From an uncultured delta proteobacterium (GTDB lineage Bacteria > Myxococcota > Myxococcia > Myxococcales > Anaeromyxobacteraceae), in contig CAWFDF010000009.1 of NCBI GenBank assembly GCA_963814585.1, positions 160,001-224,000 of the forward strand: a DNA stretch of 64,000 bases. The letters run 5' to 3'. Shown in pieces: positions 29,518-41,368 of the stretch. The position numbers and the translations under genes were made by a program. The notes beneath the pieces are model-generated. The model made no database searches. It was not told the origin of the DNA and saw only the letters and a list, made by a program, of their open reading frames with translations. Every line of letters begins with the position of its first letter. Within the stretch, counting starts at the first letter, position 1.

Positions 29518-29961
29518 TCACCCCCACCAGGCGCGCTGGTAGTCGTCGAGGCCCCGGTCGATGAGGGCGAGGGCCTGCTCGAAGGCGCGCCGGCCGTGGC
29601 GGTAGGGATCGGGGACGTCGAAGCCGCCGTAGGCGCCGAGCCGGTGGACGCGCCCGCGGGCCGCCGGCGCCAGCAGCTCCAGGTGGCGCTGCTGGGCGGT
29701 CTCCATCACCAGGATGAGCCCGGCGGCGGCGAGCAGCTCCGGCGTGACCTGGCGGGACCGGTGGGCGGAGAGGTCGAGCCCGCGATCGGCCAGCAGGGCG
29801 ACCGCCAGGGGATTGGCCGGCCGGCCCGGCGGGGCGGCGAGGCCGGCGGAGGAGACGGCCAGCCCGGGGCGCAGCGCGGCCAGGCGGGCGCGGAGCAGGG
29901 TCTCGGCCATGGGGCTGCGGCAGATGTTGCCGGTGCAGAGGACGAGGACGGGGGAGGTCAT
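29518..29961 (-). CDS. wzb: Low-molecular-weight protein tyrosine phosphatase
   Basis: CTGNICRSPMAE P-loop and DVPDPY; cognate Wzc kinase lies at the other end of the locus. Confidence 0.88.
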   Translation of the reverse strand: MTSPVLVLCTGNICRSPMAETLLRARLAALRPGLAVSSAGLAAPPGRPANPLAVALLADRGLDLSAHRSRQVTPELLAAAGLILVMETAQQRHLELLAPAARGRVHRLGAYGGFDVPDPYRHGRRAFEQALALIDRGLDDYQRAWWG

Positions 29962-29980
29962 GGCGGGCCGGCGGGCCCGG

Positions 29981-30112
29981 GCGGTGCGGGCCGGAGCTCA
30001 CGGCCGCGGCTCCGGCGGACCCGGGCGGTGCGGGCCGGAGCCTCACGACCGCGGCTCCGGGGGACACTTGCGGTGCGGGCCGGAGCGTCACGGCCGCGGC
30101 TCCGGCGGGACC
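29981..30112. repeat. Three 44-45 bp tandem palindromic repeats
   Basis: GCGGTGCGGGCCGGAGC..TCACG(G/A)CCGCGGCTCCGG at 29981, 30025 and 30070; each has CCGGAGC/GCTCCGG arms. Confidence 0.9.
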
Positions 30113-30525
30113 AGCGCGAAGCCGAGCGCCGCCGCGTTCCGGCGCACGCGATCGTCGCAGCTGATCACCTCCAGGCCGCCCAGCTCGGCGTCGAGGACGC
30201 GCAGCGAGGCGAGGTGGATGGCGTCGAGCGAGCGGACGGGCTCGACCGGCAGCTCCTCGCGGGCCCGGCGGAGCACCTCGTCGTCCATGGCGACGACGTC
30301 GCAGGAGCGCTCGAAGGCGGCGAGCAGCCGCTGCGCCTCCCGGGCCGAGCGGGCGTCGAGGCGCCGCTCGCGCCGGGCGCGGGAGATGGCCCGCGCCGCC
30401 TCCACGAACGTGAGGGCCGAGGTGACCAGCCCCTGGCCGGAGAGCGCGGGGCGCAGGGCCTGGTCGCCGTCGAGCAGCACGCGCAGCAGGGCGCTGGTCT
30501 CGACGTAGCGGAGGCGGCTCGTCAC
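30088..30525 (-). CDS. vapC: PIN-domain toxin
   Basis: YVETSALL, SALTFVEA, RSLDAIHLAS, SCDDR. Confidence 0.88.
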   Translation of the reverse strand: MTSRLRYVETSALLRVLLDGDQALRPALSGQGLVTSALTFVEAARAISRARRERRLDARSAREAQRLLAAFERSCDVVAMDDEVLRRAREELPVEPVRSLDAIHLASLRVLDAELGGLEVISCDDRVRRNAAALGFALVPPEPRP

Positions 30526-30818
30526 TCCTCGCGCTCCGAGGCGAGCAGCTCTGCGGAGGTGCCGTGCTCGAGCCGGACCAGCGGCGCCGCGCCCCAGTCC
30601 AGGGAGCCGGGCGCCGCGGCGGGGCGGAGGAGGCCGCGATCGACGAGGCGCCGGTAGCGGAGGTCGGCGGGAGAGGCGAGGCGGTCGCCGGCGCCGGGTG
30701 GCCGCAGCTCGGCCACGACGCGGCCGCGATCGGTGACGAGCACGACGTCGCCGCGCGCCACGTCGCGCAGGTAGCCGCTGAGGTGGGCCTTGAGGTCGCG
30801 GACGCCGGCGGTCTTCAT
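30522..30818 (-). CDS. Phd/YefM-type antitoxin
   Basis: MKTAGVRDLKAHLSGYLRDVARGDVVLVTDRGRVVAEL; 4-nt overlap with vapC. Confidence 0.9.
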   Translation of the reverse strand: MKTAGVRDLKAHLSGYLRDVARGDVVLVTDRGRVVAELRPPGAGDRLASPADLRYRRLVDRGLLRPAAAPGSLDWGAAPLVRLEHGTSAELLASEREE

Positions 30819-30824
30819 GACGTC

Positions 30825-30853
30825 GATGTAGTCACGCGGGACTACATTGTCAA
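30825..30853 (-). promoter_or_regulatory. sigma70 promoter with palindromic operator for phd-vapC
   Basis: TTGACA-N17-TACATC, 6 nt before the ATG; perfect inverted repeat ATGTAGTC-N6-GACTACAT at 30826-30847. Confidence 0.8.
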
Positions 30854-32663
30854 GGCGGGGGGAGGCTGGCGCGCCGGCCCGCGCAGCGGCCCTCCCCCGG
30901 CGGCGCGGAAGCTCCAGCGGAGGCGGTGGGGCGCGGCGCCGGCGACGCGGAGGTAGCCGGCGTGGATGCCGTGGAGGTGGTGGGCGGCGCAGAGGCTGAC
31001 CAGGTTGGCGGGCGCGTCGTCACCGCCGTGCGAGCGGAACTGGACGTGGTGGACGTGGAGCGCGGCGCGGCTGCAGCCTGGGACCTGGCACCAGCCCCGA
31101 TCGCGGTCGAGGACGCGCCGCTGCAGGGTGTTCCGCTCGGCCAGGACGGGCTTCCAGGTGGCGAGGAAGTGCTCGGCGACCGCCTCGAGCGCCTCGTCCG
31201 GGGTGATGAAGCGCCCGGCGGCCGCCCTGGCCGCCCGGAGCGCCAAGTCGAGGAGCACCATGACCCGGGAGGGGAGCCGGAAGGAGACCTGGCCCCGCGC
31301 GCACACCTGCGCCTCCTCCTCGGCCTGGGCCTCGCGGGCCAGGGCGATGCAGGGGAGGCGGGCGGCGCGCTCGAGCCAGGCGTCGAGCGTGCGCTCGGTG
31401 GCGTGGGACGCGACGATGCGGGCCTTCTCGTAGCTGATCCGCCCCTCGCGCATGGCGGTGCGCAGGCCGGGCAGCCAGTAGAGCCGGCGCTCCAGGGCGG
31501 CGCGCTGCTCGACGGCGCGGCCGGACATCCCGAGCCGCTCGGCGCAGTAGTGATCGAAGGTGACGAACTGCATGTCGCGCCAGACGCCGACCTGCAGCAG
31601 GAGCATGGCGAGGTGGCCGAGGAGGTCGTCCCAGCGGGAGCGCAGGTCGCGGAGCCGGCGCAGGTCGGCGTCGAGGCGGGCGAGATCGAGGGCAGGGGCA
31701 GGCGCCACCACGCCGGATCGCGCCAGCGCCGGATCGACCGTCACCGAAGCGACCGATCGACGAGTCGATCGCCGATGAGCGGTCCGCCGCCGGATCGCCT
31801 GCCTGCGAGGCGCACGCCGGGGAAGCCGCGGCCACCTCGCCGCCGGGCACCATCCCCGGCTCCGGGTCGTAGCAGGTGAGGAAGGACCACTGGTGGTGCT
31901 GCTGCTCCAGCCAGGCCTTGAGCTCCTCGAGCGGCTTGCCGACGGGGGCGTGGTCGAGCAGCTGGCCGGGCCGCCCGGCGGGCTCCTCGCCCGCGGCCGG
32001 GTGCGCGCCGAGGTACTCCTGGCAGACCGCCTCGAGCCGCTGCCAGGTGGGGGCCGCCGCGCCGAGCAGCTTGCCGGCGAGCGAGAGGGCCTCGTCGAGC
32101 TTCTCCCGCCCCTCGGGCCGGACGGCCAGGGTGGTCCGCTCCCAGCGCTCCTCGTCCGCCTCGCCGCCGTCGTCGCCCAGCGCCTCCCGCACGCCGGCCG
32201 CGAGCGACCGGACGGTCTCGACCCTGGCGCGCTCCACCCAGGCCGCCTCCGACTCGCCGCGGGCGACGGCGACGATGGTCTCGGCCTTGCGCGGGCTCAC
32301 CGCGCCGGTGCGGACGGCCTGGCGCAGCAGCGGCCGCTCCGCGAGGTGGCGCGACAGCCGCTCGAGCTTCTGGGCGGTGCTGCCGGCGATGCCGAGCCGC
32401 TCGCGCGCGTAGTCGCCGAGGCAGGAGAAGCCGAGGCGCAGGAGCCGGTCGCCGACGGTGAGCGAGGCCAGGCCGTCGCCCACCGCCAGGTCGATGGCGC
32501 CGCGGCCGCGCGCCACCCGGACCAGCAGGCCGTCGAGCAGGAAGGCGGCCTCGTCGCGCAGCACCCCCCCGAGCTCGTGGGGCATGAGCGGCTCGAGCGT
32601 GCGGGCCACGCCGGCGATCGACTCGAGGTCGTCGCCCGGCGGGAGGTGGAGTGCTCGGCTCAT
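30842..32663 (-). CDS. HNH endonuclease with duplicated DUF222-like N-terminal domains, frameshift near 31750-31800
   Basis: RDRGWCQVPGC..HVHHVQFRSHGG..NLVSLCAAHH..IH; two copies of the F..Y..ERLG...G.(V/I)S..KA...W.ERA module. Confidence 0.85.
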
Positions 32664-32692
32664 GCATCGAGCAATTATCACCAAGCGCGGTA

Positions 32693-32709
32693 CCTGAACA
32701 GATGTATCG
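32693..32709 (-). promoter_or_regulatory. Myxococcus-type LexA (SOS) box upstream of the HNH gene
   Basis: Minus strand CGATACATCTGTTCAGG matches CTRHAMRYBYGTTCAGS at 16/17; lies in the -35 region of a TGGTGATAAT extended -10. Confidence 0.72.
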
Positions 32710-32872
32710 TACAGGGGCCCCAAGAGGGGCGGAACCTGCTGGCGCGGCCGGCCCACGGGGCGACACGGATCCAGCAGCTCACCGGCGCACGACGACAGCC
32801 GTCTCAGCACTGCGCGTTCCTCTCGTCCGGCTCGGCTGGGCGAGGTGTTTCGCGGCTGGTAAAATCGAACAG

Positions 32873-33160
32873 ATGGTCCTGGCCCCCACCACCTTGATTC
32901 CGCTGGCTCGCAAGTACCTGTGGTGGAAGTCACCTGAAGAGGCGGTCGCCTCCCCGGAGCGGTTGATCGCCCAGGTCATGGACATCGGCGACTTCGCGGA
33001 CGTCTCGGCGCTGGCAGCACAGGTCGGGGATGAGGTCTTGCGCGACGTGCTGCTGCACGGCGAGGCCGGCCAGGTCAGCGATCGCTCCTGGACCTACTGG
33101 CACTACCGGCTCGGACTCGCCAGGGTCGGCGAGCGGCGCGCCCTCACCATTACTGTCTAG
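32873..33160 (+). CDS. Hypothetical protein, antitoxin-like (KYLWWK...QVMDIGD...SWTYWHYRL)
   Basis: Extended -10 TGGTAAAAT 7 nt before ATG 32873; aromatic-rich pattern recalled from small proteins beside AbiEii-type NTases. Confidence 0.6.
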   Translation: MVLAPTTLIPLARKYLWWKSPEEAVASPERLIAQVMDIGDFADVSALAAQVGDEVLRDVLLHGEAGQVSDRSWTYWHYRLGLARVGERRALTITV

Positions 33161-33165
33161 TCGCC

Positions 33166-33200
33166 TTGACAGTTCGGTCGCATGGGGATAGCGTCCATGC
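33166..33200 (+). promoter_or_regulatory. sigma70 promoter and operator for hicAB
   Basis: TTGACA(33166)-N17-TAGCGT(33189); GCATGG/CCATGC inverted repeat brackets the -10. Confidence 0.75.
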
Positions 33201-33201
33201 C

Positions 33202-33423
33202 ATGAAGGCGCGAGAGATGCTGACCATCCTGCGCCGGCTTGGGGCCACCGAGCGGCCCGGCAGGGGCTCGCACATTCGCTTCACCATCGGCGCCTGCAAC
33301 ACCACGGTGCCGAACCACAAGGGCGAGGACCTGAAGACCGGGACGCTCCACGCCATCGAGGCCAGCCTCGAGCCCTGCCTGGGCAAGGACTGGCTCAAGA
33401 AGATCATCCGGGAGGGGAAGTAG
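33202..33423 (+). CDS. hicA: HicA mRNA interferase toxin
   Basis: GRGSH, TTVPNH..DLKTGTLHAI. Confidence 0.9.
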   Translation: MKAREMLTILRRLGATERPGRGSHIRFTIGACNTTVPNHKGEDLKTGTLHAIEASLEPCLGKDWLKKIIREGK

Positions 33424-33433
33424 GAGGCACACG

Positions 33434-33832
33434 ATGAAGTCCAGGAGCTACACCGTTCGCTACGAGAAGGACCCGTCGGGTTGGTGGATCGTCACGGTGC
33501 CCGAGGTCCAGGGGTGCCTGACGCAGGGCCGCAGCCTGGCCGAGGGTCGGAGGCGAATTCGCGAGGCGCTGGCCCTCTTCGTCGATGAGGCTGCAGCCGC
33601 TCGCGCGGAGCTGGTGGACGACATCCGCCTGCCGGCCCGGACCAGCGCCGTGGTCCGCAAGGCCGCCTCGGCTCGCGGCCAGCTCGACCGGGTCCAGGCC
33701 GAGGCGATGAAGGCCACGGCCACCGCCGCCACCCTGCTCACGCGGAAGTTCGGACTATCAGTGCGCGATGCCGCCGAGCTGCTCGGGGTCTCCTACCAGC
33801 GGATCCAGCAGCTCGCTGGCGCACGGCGATAG
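33434..33832 (+). CDS. hicB: HicB antitoxin with C-terminal HTH
   Basis: VPEVQGCLTQGRSLAE..IREAL; GLSVRDAAELLGVSYQRIQQL; AGGAGG RBS. Confidence 0.9.
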   Translation: MKSRSYTVRYEKDPSGWWIVTVPEVQGCLTQGRSLAEGRRRIREALALFVDEAAAARAELVDDIRLPARTSAVVRKAASARGQLDRVQAEAMKATATAATLLTRKFGLSVRDAAELLGVSYQRIQQLAGARR

Positions 33833-33965
33833 CTGCGTCAGGTTGGTCGAAGGTGCGGGCGCCGGCTGCACTCTCGAACCTGGCAGCGCAGAGGGCGCGG
33901 ACGGGGGAGGTCGTGGGGGCCGCGTCCCTACCTACTGAAGATCGACAGCCGTGGGGCGGGCGGGA

Positions 33966-35239: not shown

Positions 35240-35545
35240 CGCGCCGGCGACTCCTCGAGCTGGGTCCTTCCGACCGACCCAGGCCCAGGCGACCGGGTCC
35301 CAGGTGCCATCGACCCTTCCCTCCAGGCGATCCAGCGCCTTCGCCACCTGCTCACACTGGCAGGGGCGGACGCGGCCGACGAAGCTCCTGGGGTGGCGGG
35401 TCTTCACGACCGCCTCGTCGTCCACCGAGAGCGCCTCGAAGAGCTTCTCGCCGGGGCGGATCCCGGTGAACCGGAGCTCGACGTCGTCGCCGGGCCCGAC
35501 GCCGGAGAGGGTGAGGAGGTCGCGGCCCAGATCGACTCCCAGCAC
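35240..35545 (-). pseudogene. C-terminal relic of CapD/PglF-type UDP-sugar dehydratase
   Basis: DLGRDLLTLSG...FTGIRPGEKLFEAL...KTRHP matches the family's C-terminal GxRPGEKLxEEL motif; no N-terminal part upstream. Confidence 0.75.
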
Positions 35546-35621
35546 AGGTCAGCGATGAACCTTCCTCGACCAGCGCTCGGGCACTAGAGTGACCGCTGCA
35601 CACACCGCCTTGGGGGCAGGG

Positions 35622-36945
35622 ATGAGCGAGTTGCTGACGAGCATCAAGGGCCGCACCGCCCGCATCGGCGTCATCGGGCAGGGCTACGTCGGCCTGCCGC
35701 TGGCGCTGGTCTTCTGCGAGGCGGGCTTTCCCGTCACCGGCTTCGACCTCGACCCGGTCAAGGTGGCGGCGCTGAACCGAGGCGAGTCGTACATCCAGCA
35801 CATCGGGCCGGAGCGGGTGAAGAAGGCGGTGAGCCGGCGGCCGGTTCACGGCCACCACCGACCTGGACGGGCTGCGCGAGTGCGACGCCGTCATCATCTG
35901 CGTGCCGACCCCGCTCGGCCCGCACCGCGAGCCAGACAACTCCTACATCCACCGGACCGCCGAGGAGATCGCCCGGCGGCTGCGGCCGGGACAGCTGGTC
36001 ATCCTGGAGTCGACCACCTACCCGGGCACCACCGACGGCGAGGTGCTGCCGATCCTGAAGAAGAGCGGCCTGCGCTGCCCCGAGGACTTCCTGCTGGCCT
36101 TCTCGCCGGAGCGCGAGGACCCGGGGCGCAAGGACTTCACGACCCGGTCCATCCCCAAGGTGGTGGGCGGCGTCAACGCCGCGTCCACCGAGGCGGCGGT
36201 GGCGCTCTACACGGCGGGGCTCGACCAGGTGGTGGCGGTGTCGTCGTCGCGGGTGGCCGAGTCCTCCAAGCTGCTGGAGAACATCTTCCGGTCGGTGAAC
36301 ATCGCGCTGGTGAACGAGCTGAAGGTGATCCTGGACAAGATGGGCATCGACGTCTGGGAGGTGATCGCGGCGGCCAGCACGAAGCCGTTCGGCTACATGC
36401 CGTTCTACCCGGGGCCGGGCCTGGGCGGGCACTGCATCCCGCTCGATCCCTTCTACCTCTCCTGGAAGGCGGCCGAGCACGGCGAGTGGGCGCGCTTCAT
36501 CGAGCTGGCGGGGGAGATCAACACGCGCATGCCGCGCTACGTGGTGGACAAGGTGATGCACGCCCTCAACGAGGACGGCAAGGCGCTCAAGGGCTCGCGG
36601 GTGCTGGTGCTCGGCCTGGCCTACAAGGCCAACGTGGACGACGACCGGGAGTCGCCGTCGTACGAGATCCTGGAGCTGCTCCAGGAGCTGGGGGCGCGGA
36701 TCGACTACTGCGATCCGCACTTCCCGGCGACGCGCAAGGGGCGGCACCACGACCTGTCGCTCGAGTCCGTCCCGTGCGACGCCGCGACCTTCGGCCGCTA
36801 CGACGCGGTGGTGGTCTCGACGGCGCACGAGGCGTTCAAGAAGGCGGAGCTCTGGGGTGGCGTGAAGCTGGCGATCGACGCCCGCAACCTGGTGGCGCCG
36901 CTCTTCGCCGGGCGGGCCCTGCCCTGCCGGCTGGTGAAGGCCTAG
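35622..36945 (+). CDS. wbpA: UDP-N-acetylhexosamine 6-dehydrogenase (WbpA/TviB/WecC family), frameshift near 35840
   Basis: GQGYVGLPLA, ESTTYPGTT, FSPEREDPG, GPGLGGHCIPLDPFYLSWKA, DDDRESP. Confidence 0.85.
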
Positions 36946-37965
36946 ATGACCGCGCCGTGGGAGGCGGCCGTCGCCAGGCGGAAGGCGACCTGGCTGGTGA
37001 CCGGGGGGGCGGGGTTCATCGGCTCGCACCTGGTGGAGCACCTGCTGCGGCTGGGGCAGCGGGTGCGGGTGCTGGACAGCTTCGCCACCGGCCACCGCTC
37101 CAACCTGGAGGCGGCCGCCGGGGCGCACCAGGCCAACCTGGAGGTGATCGAGGGTGACATCCGGGATCCGGCGGCCTGCGAAGCCGCCTGCCGGGGCGTG
37201 GAGCTGATCCTCCACCAGGCGGCGCTCGGCTCGGTCCCGCGCTCCATCCTGGACCCGCTGGCGAGCCACGAGGTGAACGTCACGGGCTTTCTGAACGTGC
37301 TGCAGGCGGCGCGCGGGGCCGGGATCAAGCGGGTGGTCTACGCCAGCTCCAGCTCGGTCTACGGGGATCACCCGACGCTGCCCAAGGTGGAGGACCAGGT
37401 GGGGCGGCAGCTCTCGCCCTATGCGGTGACCAAGTACGCCGACGAGCTCTACGCGCACGTCTTCGGCGCGGCCTACGGGCTGGAGCTGCTGGGGCTGCGC
37501 TACTTCAACGTGTTCGGCCCCCGGCAGGACCCCGAGGGGCCCTACGCGGCGGTGATCCCGATCTGGTTCCGGTGCCTGTACCAGGGCGAGCCGGCCTACG
37601 TGAACGGCGACGGGGAGACGAGCCGGGACTTCTGCTACGTGGACAACGTGGTGCAGGCCAACCTGCTGGCGGCGACGACGACGAGGCCCGAGGCGATCGG
37701 ACAGGTCTACAACGTGGCCTTCGGCGAGCAGACGACGCTGGCGCGGCTCTTCCTGCTGATGCGGGGCGAGGTGGCGCGGGTGCGACCCGAGGCCGCCAGG
37801 CTCGAGCTGAGCCACCGGCCGTTCCGCGACGGAGACATCCGCCACTCGCTGGCCGACATCGGGAGGGCGCGGAGGCTGCTCGGCTACGAGCCGACGGTGT
37901 CGGTGGGCGAGGGGATCGCGCGCGCCACCGCGTCGTACGCGCCGGCCCCTACCTCTTCAGCCTGA
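36946..37965 (+). CDS. wbpP: UDP-GlcNAc(A) 4-epimerase (WbpP/TviC type)
   Basis: TGGAGFIGS, QAALGSVPRS, YAVTK, LRYFNVFGPRQDP. Confidence 0.88.
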   Translation: MTAPWEAAVARRKATWLVTGGAGFIGSHLVEHLLRLGQRVRVLDSFATGHRSNLEAAAGAHQANLEVIEGDIRDPAACEAACRGVELILHQAALGSVPRSILDPLASHEVNVTGFLNVLQAARGAGIKRVVYASSSSVYGDHPTLPKVEDQVGRQLSPYAVTKYADELYAHVFGAAYGLELLGLRYFNVFGPRQDPEGPYAAVIPIWFRCLYQGEPAYVNGDGETSRDFCYVDNVVQANLLAATTTRPEAIGQVYNVAFGEQTTLARLFLLMRGEVARVRPEAARLELSHRPFRDGDIRHSLADIGRARRLLGYEPTVSVGEGIARATASYAPAPTSSA

Positions 37966-38008
37966 CCACGTTCCCGGCCTGCTGCTCCGCCGCCGCGCTC
38001 TCGAGGCG
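37942..38008. repeat. 67-bp exact direct repeat, left copy
   Basis: Identical to 39879-39945 (CCGGCCCCTACCTCTTCAGCCTGACC...CTCGAGGCG). Confidence 0.97.
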
Positions 38009-38102
38009 GTCGTCTCCCGGCCACTCGGGGACGAGGCCGAGGCGGGCGCACGCATAAGGGTTCCTACTCCGGCCGGTCGAAGAGGCCATGGTGACGTGCC
38101 CA

Positions 38103-38603
38103 TCAGGCAAACTCGCCGGCACTGACGGGGTACCGCCCTCCGGAGCGTATGAGCTCGTCTACCAGGCCCACCGATTCGGGCCCTGTCAACAGGCCATTCC
38201 GCACGCCGCGAGCGACGAGCGCGAGGGTCCGAACGACCTTGACTCCGCGCTCGCGGCCAACCTGGGCTGCGGTCTGGTCATCGGTGAACGCGACCGCGCC
38301 GTGCGCCTCGGCGAATGCCAGCACGGTAGCCTCACCGACGTCGTGCCTTCCTGACCCAAGGCGCCGGGCGTACTGGCCGAAGAGGAAGAGCTCGTGCAAG
38401 TCGTCGAGCGGCTCGACCCGGAGCCAGGGCAGGTCGATGGCGTCCTGGAGCTCGGGGTATTCCCGAAGTCCCGCTCGAAGCTCATCGACGACGGCGGTCG
38501 TCGTGACACGCTCGTCATTCGCTGCGAGGCGGTCGAGCATTCGCAGCTGCCTCGCCCTGGCGAAGGCGCTCAGCGGCGCGCTGTCGAAGACGAGTACGGC
38601 CAT
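38103..38603 (-). CDS. PIN-fold protein (DUF3368-like)
   Basis: LVFDSAPL, TTAVVDEL, DVGEATVLAFAE, FTDD..A..VGRERG. Confidence 0.78.
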   Translation of the reverse strand: MAVLVFDSAPLSAFARARQLRMLDRLAANDERVTTTAVVDELRAGLREYPELQDAIDLPWLRVEPLDDLHELFLFGQYARRLGSGRHDVGEATVLAFAEAHGAVAFTDDQTAAQVGRERGVKVVRTLALVARGVRNGLLTGPESVGLVDELIRSGGRYPVSAGEFA

Positions 38604-38605
38604 CG

Positions 38606-39722
38606 TCAGTCGAGCTCGAACTGTGCTCGCATCGACTCAAGCGGCACGTGGTCCTCTGGCGGGAGATCCTGTGCCGAGACCGCGCCGTGGAGCAGGTCGA
38701 GCGTGCGGCCGCGACCGAGCTTGTGGCGCCTGAACGCCCGGATGACGGCCTGTGCGTAGCGTGGCGGCACCGCCGGCGCCGACAGCTCCTCCCGGATGGT
38801 GACCCCGCCTTCCAGGTAGTCGGCCCTGGTGGGCGCGTCGGAACGCAGTCGATCGTGGGCGTTCGCGTCGATGAGGTCGAGGTTCCGCAGGTGTCCCAGG
38901 ACCGCGGTCCAGCTCACGCCGAATTCGGACCCGAGCGCGAGGGCTGCAGGGCGCGGCTCTCGCCGGCCGTCGAGCTCGAGCCACCTGGCTGGCACATGCC
39001 TCTCGGGGCATGAGGAAGTGGATCACGAAGGCGTTGATGAGCCGCTCCCGCCCGTCCGGGTCGGGACCGACGATCCACTCGTCGGAGAAGTCGTCGGAGA
39101 AGACATGATGGCCGAGCTCGTGCGCCAGGGTGAAGCGCCGGCGGCCGGACGGCTTGGCGCCATTCACGACGGCGACGCCGCCTGCATCCAGTCGCAGGTA
39201 GGATCCGTCGAGGGACTCGTCCCGGAGGTCGATGCAGAAGGCGTAGCACCCGAGGCGCTCCGCCACGGCGAGGAGGTCCCAGACCGGGCCAGGCGAGAGG
39301 TCCAGGTGGTGCCGCAGGGTGCGCGCGGCCACCTCTGCGCTCTCGACCGAGTCCACGGCTGCCAGCCTGGGCGTGGGAGGTGGCGCGAGAAGGCCCAGTT
39401 CGGTGACCAGCTTCACGTCGTGGGCGAGCCCGTCCAACACGGCGTCGGCCCTCGACTCATCGGTGGTCTCGCGGCGCCTTCGCCTGCTCACCACGGCAGG
39501 GAGCGGGGGCGAGAGGAACCATTCGATGGACCGCTTGAGGACGCTCGCGATCCGGACCAGCTCCAGCGAGTCGAGCTTGCGCTCACCCGACTCCAGCTTG
39601 GTGATGGCCGTACGGTCGAGGTTCACCGCGGCTGCAAGGTCAGCCTGGCTCAGCCGCGCGACCTTTCGAGCCTCGGCGACCCTGGCCCCGAGCTCCTGCC
39701 AGCTCTTGAGTGCCTGTGCCAT
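38606..39722 (-). CDS. XRE HTH + ImmA/IrrE (peptidase M78) fusion, frameshift near 39000
   Basis: LSQADLA...RTAITKLESGERK HTH; RRRFTLAHELGH zinc motif; ERLINAFVIHFLMP. Confidence 0.88.
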
Positions 39723-39758
39723 GGTGCGAAAATAGCACATGGCCTGGGACCGAACGGA

Positions 39759-39775
39759 GGTGAACATGCGTACAG
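39759..39775 (-). promoter_or_regulatory. Myxococcus-type LexA (SOS) box upstream of the ImmA-PIN operon
   Basis: Minus strand CTGTACGCATGTTCACC matches CTRHAMRYBYGTTCAGS at 15/17; overlaps a TAGACT -10 (39774-39779) and its expected start site. Confidence 0.62.
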
Positions 39776-39878
39776 TCTACGCACCTCCCTGACATTCCCC
39801 CGCCTTCGGGTCGGCCCCCCCGCCTCGCGCCCCCGGCCCGAGGATCCCGCCCGCGTCCACCCGGTCGCGCCCGCGTCC

Positions 39879-39945
39879 CCGGCCCCTACCTCTTCAGCCT
39901 GACCACGTTCCCGGCCTGCTGCTCCGCCGCCGCGCTCTCGAGGCG
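39879..39945. repeat. 67-bp exact direct repeat, right copy
   Basis: Identical to 37942-38008; contains the wecA-like stop codon. Confidence 0.97.
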
Positions 39946-41368
39946 ATCGAGCGCCGAGGAGACGTGCTCGCAGAGCAGCTCGACGCCGATCTCCACGTCG
40001 CGGTGGACGGTGAGGCGGCCGTCGGTCCAGGCGAGGTCGAGGTGGTCGTCTCCCGGCCGCTCGGGGATGAGGCCGTAGCGGGCCCGGAGCGCCCCGGACG
40101 GCAGGCCGGCCAGCCCCTCGCTCCAGGGGCCAGCTGTCGGCGCGATCCGCGAGGCGGCCGAGCGTGAGGCCGACGCCGGTGGCGCCGAAGACGCCGGCCG
40201 AGGCCCGGACCACCTCCCAGACCTCCAGCGGCGTGGCCGCCCGCTGCAGCTGCTCCCCGGCCCGGCGGACGGCGCCGCGCATGTCGAGGTTGAGCCTGCG
40301 GTCGAGCAGGGCCGCCTGGGCCTTGGCGAGGTCGATGAACCCGAGGGCGCGCAGGGCCACGAAGGAGAGGGCGGCGACCGCCAGCAGGACCACCGCGGCA
40401 GCGGCGCCGTTGGTGAAGCTGACGGCCAGGGCCGCCGCGCCGAAGAGGGCGGCGCCGAGGTAGATGACCAGCACGGCCTGGCGGTGGCTCAGGCCGCGAT
40501 CCATGAGCCGGTGGTGGATGTGGCCGCGATCGGCCGAGAAGAGCGGCGCGCCGCGGAAGGCGCGGCGGCCCATGGCCAGGAGCGTGTCGGAGATGGGGAT
40601 GCCGAGCGCCAGGATGGGCACCACGATGGCCACGGTGGCGGCGGCCTTGCTGCTGGTCTTGAGCGAGGTGGCGGCGAGGACGAAGCCGAGGAACATGGAC
40701 CCGGTGTCGCCCATGAAGATGGTGGCGGGGTTGAAGTTGTAGAAGAGGAACCCGAGGACGGCGCCGCCCAGCGTGGCGGTGAAGAGGAGCATGAGCGGCT
40801 CGCCGCGGACCGCCGCCAGGGTGAAGATGGTGGCCACGGCGATGAGGGCGACGCCGCCGGCCAGGCCATCGAGCCCGTCGATGAGGTTCATGGCGTTGAT
40901 GACGCCGGCGAACCAGAGCATGGTGAAGGGGAGCGCGAAGACGCCGAGCTGGATGGCCGGGCCGAAGGGCTGGCTGATGTGGTCGATGCGGTAGCCGGCC
41001 CAGTACATGCCGGCGGCGACGGCGAACTGGACCAGGAACTTGGCCCGGGCGCCGCTGCCCTTGAGGTCGTCGAAGACGCCCAGCGCCGCGATGGCCGCCC
41101 CGCCGACGAAGAGGGCGAGCGCCGAGCGCGCATCGGACCAGAGCTGGCGGCCGGTGGCGCTGTTCACGAAGAAGAGGGCGGCGAGCGGGACGAAGAAGGC
41201 GACGACGATGGCGAGCCCACCGAGGCGAGGGATGGCCTTGCCGTGGGTCTTCCGCGACGAGAGCCCGTGATCGAGGAGCCTGAACCGCTGCGCCACCTCC
41301 CGCACGGCGGGCGTGAGGGCGGCGCCGACGAGCGTGGCGGAGACGAAGGCGACGGCGGCGGTTCTCAG
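39886..41368 (-). CDS. wecA: WecA/MraY family undecaprenyl-phosphate HexNAc-1-P transferase with C-terminal extension, frameshift near 40130
   Basis: PRLGG, GVFDD, NAMNLIDGLDGL, NFNPATIFMGDTGS, ADRGHIHHRL; AGGAGG precedes codon 41368 (CTG), so the start is uncertain. Confidence 0.85.

Follow-up and report, generated by a model that had tools for sequence, protein, structure and literature searches.

Between two polysaccharide genes of an uncultured delta proteobacterium of the family Anaeromyxobacteraceae lies a two-gene cassette that encodes an XRE-type regulator fused to an ImmA/IrrE-like peptidase, and a PIN-domain protein. The stretch analysed, which we call the window, comprises 64,000 nucleotides (GenBank assembly GCA_963814585.1, contig CAWFDF010000009.1, positions 160,001 to 224,000); coordinates without a prefix refer to it. 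We consider it reasonably likely that the cassette, which has a predicted LexA-controlled promoter, is one unit in a stack that host recombination has built across duplicated gene tails, without an integrase. The observed part of this picture consists of the genes, a direct repeat together with a gene remnant, a LexA-type box, arrays in congeners, differing cassette orders and mixed tail alleles. Iterated insertion with long target duplication, brought about by host recombination, appears to be the best reading of how such arrays might grow. The names wbpP, wbpO, wecA, capD and wzb are family-level labels based in part on Pfam and NCBIfam matches; the NCBIfam matches of the wbpP-like and wecA-like genes score under the curated cut-offs.

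A direct repeat and a decaying wecA tail flank the cassette

On one side of the cassette lies a wbpP/TviC-like gene for an NAD-dependent epimerase (36946..37965, plus strand; Pfam Epimerase 2e-61, NCBIfam TviC below cut-off), and on the other a wecA-like gene for a GT4 initiating transferase (39886..41368, minus strand; Pfam and NCBIfam). The cassette is bracketed by an exact direct repeat of 67 bp (37942-38008 = 39879-39945; spacing 1937), just as a sequence-only reading of the window had reported. The placement of the two stop codons claimed there also proved correct: that of wbpP (37963-37965, plus strand) falls within the left copy and that of wecA (39886-39888, minus strand) within the right. 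If isolated pairs are defined as exact matches of at least 40 bp, 0.5-10 kb apart, with a sequence present just twice, the repeat is one of only three such pairs in the 4.34-Mb genome.

The right copy (39879..39945, minus strand) holds the last wecA codons and the stop. The left copy is extended by a second matching block (38001-38047 versus 40037-40083, 42 of 47 positions identical), so that it represents a decaying wecA 3′ remnant of 106 bp (37942..38047, minus strand) rather than the 67-bp repeat alone. Between the exact and the diverged block, 99 bp have been deleted in frame at a CCTCGA microhomology. The remnant carries four substitutions, all of them in the 38-bp block while the 67-bp block is free of them (P about 0.015); each of the four alters a residue, and a Tyr and an Arg that are kept in close wecA orthologues are lost there. 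Decay combined with recent homogenisation of the 67-bp block might account for this anatomy.

Could the repeat be an artefact of an error-rich long-read assembly? The assembly is indel-rich, with frameshifts in four of the six genes tested, including wecA and the XRE gene, and no contig listed for four runs of one study spans both repeat copies. On the other hand, a mis-join would not create the diverged block and the in-frame deletion of the left copy, and the same architecture is present in congeners. Moreover, a short-read contig from run X2 bridges wbpP into the repeat (37793-37988, 4 differences), and other short-read contigs of these runs carry pieces of the cassette nearly unchanged. 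An artefact therefore seems to us very improbable. One contig from run X4 covers 39881-40083, with 50 additional letters that do not match. Over 38892-39074, a single gap (its position is not listed) is the only difference between a short-read contig and the window, which is consistent with an assembly error.

The sequence-only reading also held that removal of the cassette would restore two overlapping convergent genes, and this idea did not survive comparison with relatives. None of the five congeners whose flanks were read (G001, G002, G005, G006 and G012) showed the empty wbpP/wecA overlap. The wbpP gene of G005 and three wbpP stubs of G007 share sequence with the window as far as CCGG (37942-37945), beyond which they continue into a different downstream region. 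Since the native wbpP end of relatives diverges at this point, the convergent overlap is likely a later product of deletion and fusion, not the ancestral empty site. The last wbpP codons and its stop are the antisense strand of the wecA remnant, on which wbpP now likely relies for its stop. Both flanking genes had been described as intact; their stops are indeed supplied as claimed, but wecA is frameshifted near 40115-40134 as assembled. Gain or loss of the cassette across the repeat is plausible and fits known systems, although looping out was not observed in the four runs.

An exact 24-mer of the 67-bp repeat gave no metagenome matches. In the two-match genomes inspected (G045 and G088), a second copy of the wecA tail with this structure is absent, and a long deleted copy or a paralogue is found instead. 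In G045 (contig C54; L076:4947-9801) a wecA copy with an internal deletion, about 80% identical, is found upstream of an intact wecA, with a glycosyltransferase between them.

A probable protease-gated toxin-antitoxin pair

The first gene of the insert (38606..39722, minus strand) encodes an XRE helix-turn-helix (HTH) domain fused to a zinc peptidase of the IrrE/ImmA (M78) type (Pfam HTH_3 and Peptidase_M78), and the second (38103..38603, minus strand) a PIN-domain protein, a predicted RNase toxin. The two-gene content proposed from the sequence is thus borne out, with the PIN domain detected at 22.7 bits, just under the Pfam cut-off of 23.6. A PADLOC search, suggested earlier as a check, gave RmrA (2.5e-23) as the best family of the XRE-peptidase, a predicted antitoxin and autorepressor, and PDC-S70 for its PIN partner. 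The HELGH motif of the peptidase together with Glu226 (H201, E202, H205, E226) is invariant in seven homologues, and the conserved acidic residues of the PIN protein are D7, E41, E91 and D108/D109. The AlphaFold model of the PIN homologue from G021 has a pLDDT of 94.6 and its best fold matches are PIN proteins; compared by sequence with solved structures, the PIN protein had no match at E<0.5. As assembled, the XRE gene has one frameshift (near 38985-39010), and an in-frame TGA, either a mutation or a sequence error, ends the window PIN protein 9 residues short of full-length homologues.

Relatives of the PIN protein occur in 13 of 401 genomes of the phylum, and an XRE-M78 gene lies directly upstream in 12 of the 13 loci, the remaining locus being at a contig end. 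No intact PIN gene was found among 12 congeners, of which G007 and G012 retain only the XRE gene or pieces. PIN homologues had no match in plasmids or phages.

Modules of Xre-COG2856 and PIN were predicted in 2009 (Makarova 2009, PMC2701414), and VapBC52 (Rv2515c-Rv2514c; PMC13273310, PMC6504116) is a characterised example, which self-cleaves with single-stranded DNA, cuts tRNA and protects against a phage (PMC13273310). The window pair is like VapBC52 in its antitoxin-first order, the XRE HTH domain with an IrrE peptidase, the HEXXH motif with a third Glu, and the downstream co-oriented PIN protein with its acidic residues. It is unlike VapBC52 in having an extra upstream LexA-type box. Pairing of ImmA-type antitoxins with PIN-like domains has also been noted for RosmerTA (Ernits 2023, PMC10440598). 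The antitoxin shares its best PADLOC family with that system, whereas the partner matches PDC-S70/PIN and not RmrT. To judge from its sequence, the cassette is likely a protease-gated toxin-antitoxin (TA) pair of a known kind. The earlier view of a protease-gated toxin or defence cassette is thus plausible and fits known systems, but the cassette is only one unit of a larger, lineage-wide array.

In G014 (contig C454; L030:212-4942) the neighbourhood of the XRE-peptidase/PIN pair includes a CD-NTase (SMODS) and a SLATT gene, an arrangement that recalls the CapP/CapH control of CBASS.

Predicted LexA control of the cassette and of array junctions

A predicted LexA (SOS) box (39760-39775, minus strand; matrix score 18.1) is located upstream of the XRE gene and is overlapped by a −10-like TAGACT (39774-39779, minus strand). 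Scored with a matrix derived from the boxes that precede lexA in 27 further genomes of the family (36 distinct boxes, the own genome being excluded), this box ranks second among 4,337,449 positions, and the recA site (14.6) and the lexA sites (14.1 and 12.0) score lower. It differs from the published M. xanthus LexA consensus at two positions (PMC9705874). The genome encodes LexA and has two recA genes. We predict that the cassette is under LexA control and SOS-responsive. Directly before the XRE start lies an imperfect palindrome, GTGCTA-N-TTYCGCAC (39723..39740, minus strand), recognised by its conservation: it is full in 13 of 15 loci and variant in two. It is predicted to be the operator of the XRE protein itself as well as the extended −10 of a leaderless transcript. 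A sigma-70 promoter and terminator scan at the cassette called neither a full promoter nor a terminator.

LexA-type boxes recur in the arrays. Ten of 26 array junctions, chosen by hand with the exclusion of remnants located at contig ends and of three short matches in G012, have a box scoring at least 12 within 130 nt, as compared to 0.1% of random 130-nt windows. A pattern derived from these promoters had seven matches in 92 genomes, all in the arrays of this genome (G000), G001 and G007, and none with the reversed control; the search is circular for the arrays themselves, while being informative on absence elsewhere. A promoter-box pattern had no metagenome matches, and no comparable box precedes the cassette in the loci outside the genus (G021, G014 and L043). 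A second LexA-like site in the window (32694-32709; score 13.2, rank 17) is found at the start of the HNH gene region.

Arrays between wecA/capD and wzb in congeners

The hotspot between wecA/capD and wzb is nearly empty in G002. The arrays of other congeners contain AbiE, IetAS, HigBA, HicBA and NYN units as well as the same XRE gene, separated by 5′-truncated capD tails. Their cargo (AbiEi/AbiEii, IetAS, PDC-S02, HigB, MqsA, NYN, DUF5615, Gp49/HTH, HNH and XRE-M78) is mostly of the TA or defence kind. G007 has 19 tail blocks on nine contigs, some perhaps counted twice, with five capD-tail blocks on the 8.3-kb contig C3. G012 lacks an intact capD and has at least eight capD tails, beginning just behind wecA; within the first 17.6 kb of its contig C5 there are seven capD-tail blocks (one chance-like, one of 38 bp), and C28, where the array begins directly behind wecA, holds two. 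G001 possesses an intact capD and three 92-bp terminator/promoter repeats. When a capD-tail query was run against 251 genomes of the class, with three candidates per genome scored, strong matches were found within the genus only, along with one weak 59-bp match outside it. This lineage-wide distribution, behind a LexA-type box, is what the view of a single two-gene cassette missed, real as the unit is.

The capD tails mostly end at the stop codon; their starts vary, often lying within a few bases of the stop of the preceding cassette, and there are internal deletions. A 103-nt tail block from 15 remnants is in frame, contains neither indels nor stops, and falls into two allele groups, which coexist on contig C3 of G007 at 76% identity. 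The neighbours of the same cassettes change between G007, G012 and G001: IetAS comes after a different unit in each of three places, and a unit containing DUF6941 comes after two. The XRE gene of G007 is fused to part of that open reading frame (ORF) which comes after wecA in G012.

Such arrays might also have arisen by local tandem duplication within a single lineage, followed by microhomology deletions, in which case the repeats would be passive debris and the cassettes would rarely be exchanged or looped out. Microhomology deletions are indeed evident (CCTCGA, CCGG), G012 contains an exact 405-bp internal duplication, G007 has repeated composite wbpP/capD stubs, and 67 bp is short for an efficient RecA crossover. 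This scenario has difficulty with the two capD allele groups on one contig, one of which is nearer to G012 (90-93% for three of its four remnants) than to its neighbours (71-81%), and with the different neighbours that flank the same cassettes across genomes. We regard it as quite unlikely.

Another explanation is that the tails are attachment-site scars: integrative elements would have repeatedly entered the 3′ part of wecA or capD, brought a replacement tail, lost their integrases and left addictive cargo behind. Islands that target gene ends typically carry replacement tails, and the two longest capD remnants start nearly alike (1277 and 1283), while other remnant starts differ by hundreds of bases. 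In L043, the same cassette belongs to a TA stack that contains three 113-bp repeats, one of which is followed by an ORF resembling, by eye, an integrase N-terminus. Yet neither the array stretches of G000, G001 and G012 nor the array contigs of G007 show any trace of an integrase, and independent integrase loss would be required at some 25 junctions. Neither an adjacent integrase nor a fixed crossover point, which characterise an integrative element at a gene 3′ end, was found. Although unlikely, this scenario seems to us slightly more credible than purely local duplication. The 113-bp repeat of L043 (2270-2382, 5654-5766 and 9836-9948) has no Rfam match and punctuates a stack of AbiE-type pairs and the XRE-PIN pair.

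Searches for recombinases agree with the earlier statement that none is nearby. The nearest tyrosine-recombinase match is about 115 kb from the cassette, and no serine recombinase scores above the cut-off in this genome; as for transposases, their absence nearby is judged from the 16 ORFs scanned in the window. No recombinase match lies on the array stretches of G000, G001 and G012, in their vicinity or on the array contigs of G007, and the integron integrase model TIGR02249 exceeded its cut-off in none of five genomes. A dif-like reading of the cassette ends, made by eye against a consensus, was dropped.

A G-rich junction element of about 60 bp (39812..39878, minus strand) is common to the array junctions of G001, G007 and G012, where it follows most tails. 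It occurs as a single copy in G000, which rules out a dispersed role like that of repetitive extragenic palindromic sequences. A G-quadruplex motif is present in 9 of its 17 copies, versus 0.2 per kb genome-wide. Rfam gave no matches in eight source sequences.

Several other features of these loci deserve mention. A three-gene minus-strand unit of DUF6941 and two unknown ORFs lies between capD tails in both G012 and G007 (L023:8094-9565, L017:1415-2889); its G012 copy has no PADLOC match, and we consider it a candidate defence or TA unit. A perfect 20-bp palindrome, TGTTATCACGCGTGATAACA, is found behind wbpP ends (L016:859-906 and 2286-2333; after wbpP on contig C84 of G005; G001 array), and a second XRE-M78 type, PD-Lambda-2_B-like, was seen among the same loci. 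In G006, nearly the same sequence lies downstream of wecA on one contig and of capD on the other (C13 and C14; L026, L038), which suggests exchange between wecA and capD ends.

Remaining genes of the hotspot in the window

In the window, the hotspot spans about 10 kb. Headed by wecA, it contains the XRE-PIN cassette, an inverted wbpO-wbpP pair, a capD tail, HicAB, an HNH gene, a Phd-PIN pair and a wzb 5′ remnant. The wbpO-like UDP-sugar dehydrogenase gene (35559..36945, plus strand; Pfam) is frameshifted near 35834-35845. The capD 3′ remnant (35324..35534, minus strand) is the sole trace of a capD tail in this genome, where no intact capD was found. The HicAB pair (33166..33832, plus strand), which shares 91% identity with one unit in the G012 array, is for the most part bracketed by a 42-bp direct repeat of 83% identity (32766-32807 and 33800-33841). 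It is followed by a second duplicated gene end, a 36-bp remnant of the wzb (ptp) 5′ end (33888..33922, minus strand; 89% to 29935-29970). Further cargo comprises a broken HNH-domain gene (30842-32933, minus strand; Pfam) and the Phd-PIN pair (30088-30818, minus strand; Pfam). Short tandem repeats of about 45 bp (29968-30118) lie between that pair and the far boundary of the hotspot, a wzb-like gene for a low-molecular-weight tyrosine phosphatase (29518..29961, minus strand; Pfam), which in G002 directly follows wecA.

Discussion

If host recombination built the stack, a unit would arrive with the tail of the gene that it followed in the donor, wecA here and mostly capD in relatives. One junction would be illegitimate and the other homologous, or a looped-out circle would re-enter via one crossover. 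The host gene would stay whole, leaving a spare tail to be eroded later by microhomology deletions. The tails would then act as crossover points for loss, gain and reordering of cassettes, and a perfect 67-bp block beside a decayed one would mark a recent exchange. DNA damage or phage infection would relieve LexA repression, while single-stranded DNA would trigger self-cleavage of the antitoxin, as in VapBC52, and free the PIN RNase. Tail crossovers may depend on RecA, a dependence that we only infer because RecA-independent deletion between short repeats has been documented (PMC5426353).

The combination has several partial precedents. The cassette and the single duplication are each of a known kind. 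Insertion with long target duplication was reportedly first described by Nobusato in 2000. It involves an insert of less than 20 kb, a duplication of more than 30 bp and no mobility gene (Furuta 2010, PMC2853133), and the 1.87-kb insert of the window, with its 67-bp duplication overlapping a gene end and no mobility gene, conforms to this description. Unlike the cases described there, it carries TA/defence cargo (XRE-M78 and PIN) instead of restriction-modification genes and belongs to multi-unit arrays with eroded tails and SOS-type boxes; a matching empty allele was not found in the five congeners read, the four runs or the metagenome scan. Orphan modules of rhs/cdiA, proposed to rearrange by recombination between fragments of conserved genes (Poole 2011, PMC3150448), likewise form strings of modules, each headed by such a fragment. 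In that system the fragment serves to load a new toxin tip onto the parent protein, whereas here the tail is non-coding debris of polysaccharide genes and the cargo is free-standing. Unconventional circularizable structures loop out between direct repeats without a recombinase (PMC7843796); in contrast to these, the repeats here are much shorter and no circle junction is among the listed joints.

It is tempting to go further and view the arrays as an evolved integron-like system without an integrase, in which gene tails would serve as recombination sites, the G-rich element would prime RecA-dependent shuffling, and SOS would both induce the cassettes and raise their reordering; we find this doubtful. 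Integrons are ordered stacks of exchangeable defence and TA cassettes with an SOS link, and the pilE G-quadruplex of Neisseria, which primes recombination, offers an analogy for the G-rich element. Unlike integrons, the arrays have no IntI, and their LexA-type box is on cassette promoters, not on an integrase gene. The attC core consensus is GTTRRRY, and by eye the bases after a conserved GTT do not fit RRRY.

Several observations weigh against a LexA-controlled toxin-antitoxin unit in a stack built by host recombination. Neither an empty allele nor a circle junction is among the joints listed for the four runs. Mobile-element traces are not entirely lacking: there is an IS21-type transposase on contig C492 of G007, an ORF of the G012 array resembles an ISAs1 fragment by eye (no Pfam match), and in L043 the apparent integrase fragment beside the 113-bp repeats also has no Pfam match. 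In the G001 array the repeated unit is a 92-bp terminator/promoter element instead of capD tails, and G007 is a 620-contig assembly with repeated units that may mix strains. The junctions counted for boxes share ancestry, hence the counts are not independent, and were chosen by hand; the sigma-70 scan found no −35 for the box-bearing promoter. With its PIN gene truncated and its XRE gene frameshifted, the cassette copy in the window may be dead. Finally, the Cys switch and the FR motif of VapB52 are absent: there is no Cys between H205 and E226, and the invariant W68-F69 is followed by L/V. This would lower the likelihood that the pair is VapBC52, not that it works like it.

Among the papers listed, judged by title or opening of the abstract, our literature search found no description of multi-unit integrase-free arrays with polysaccharide-gene tails and LexA-type promoters; the supplements of PMC2853133 and PMC10440598, which lay outside the search, may list tandem cases or this PIN family. 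The arrays bear on the question of how defence islands gain and reorder genes without a recombinase of their own. Variable tail starts, mixed tail alleles and changing neighbours provide base-level traces from which a testable model of accretion by host recombination can be formulated. The shared LexA-type promoter suggests that a TA/defence stack is wired to one DNA-damage signal, and the unannotated cargo of the arrays, such as the DUF6941 three-gene unit, offers candidate defence systems. In related bacteria, gene-tail repeats likely let ordinary recombination add, drop and reshuffle cassettes.

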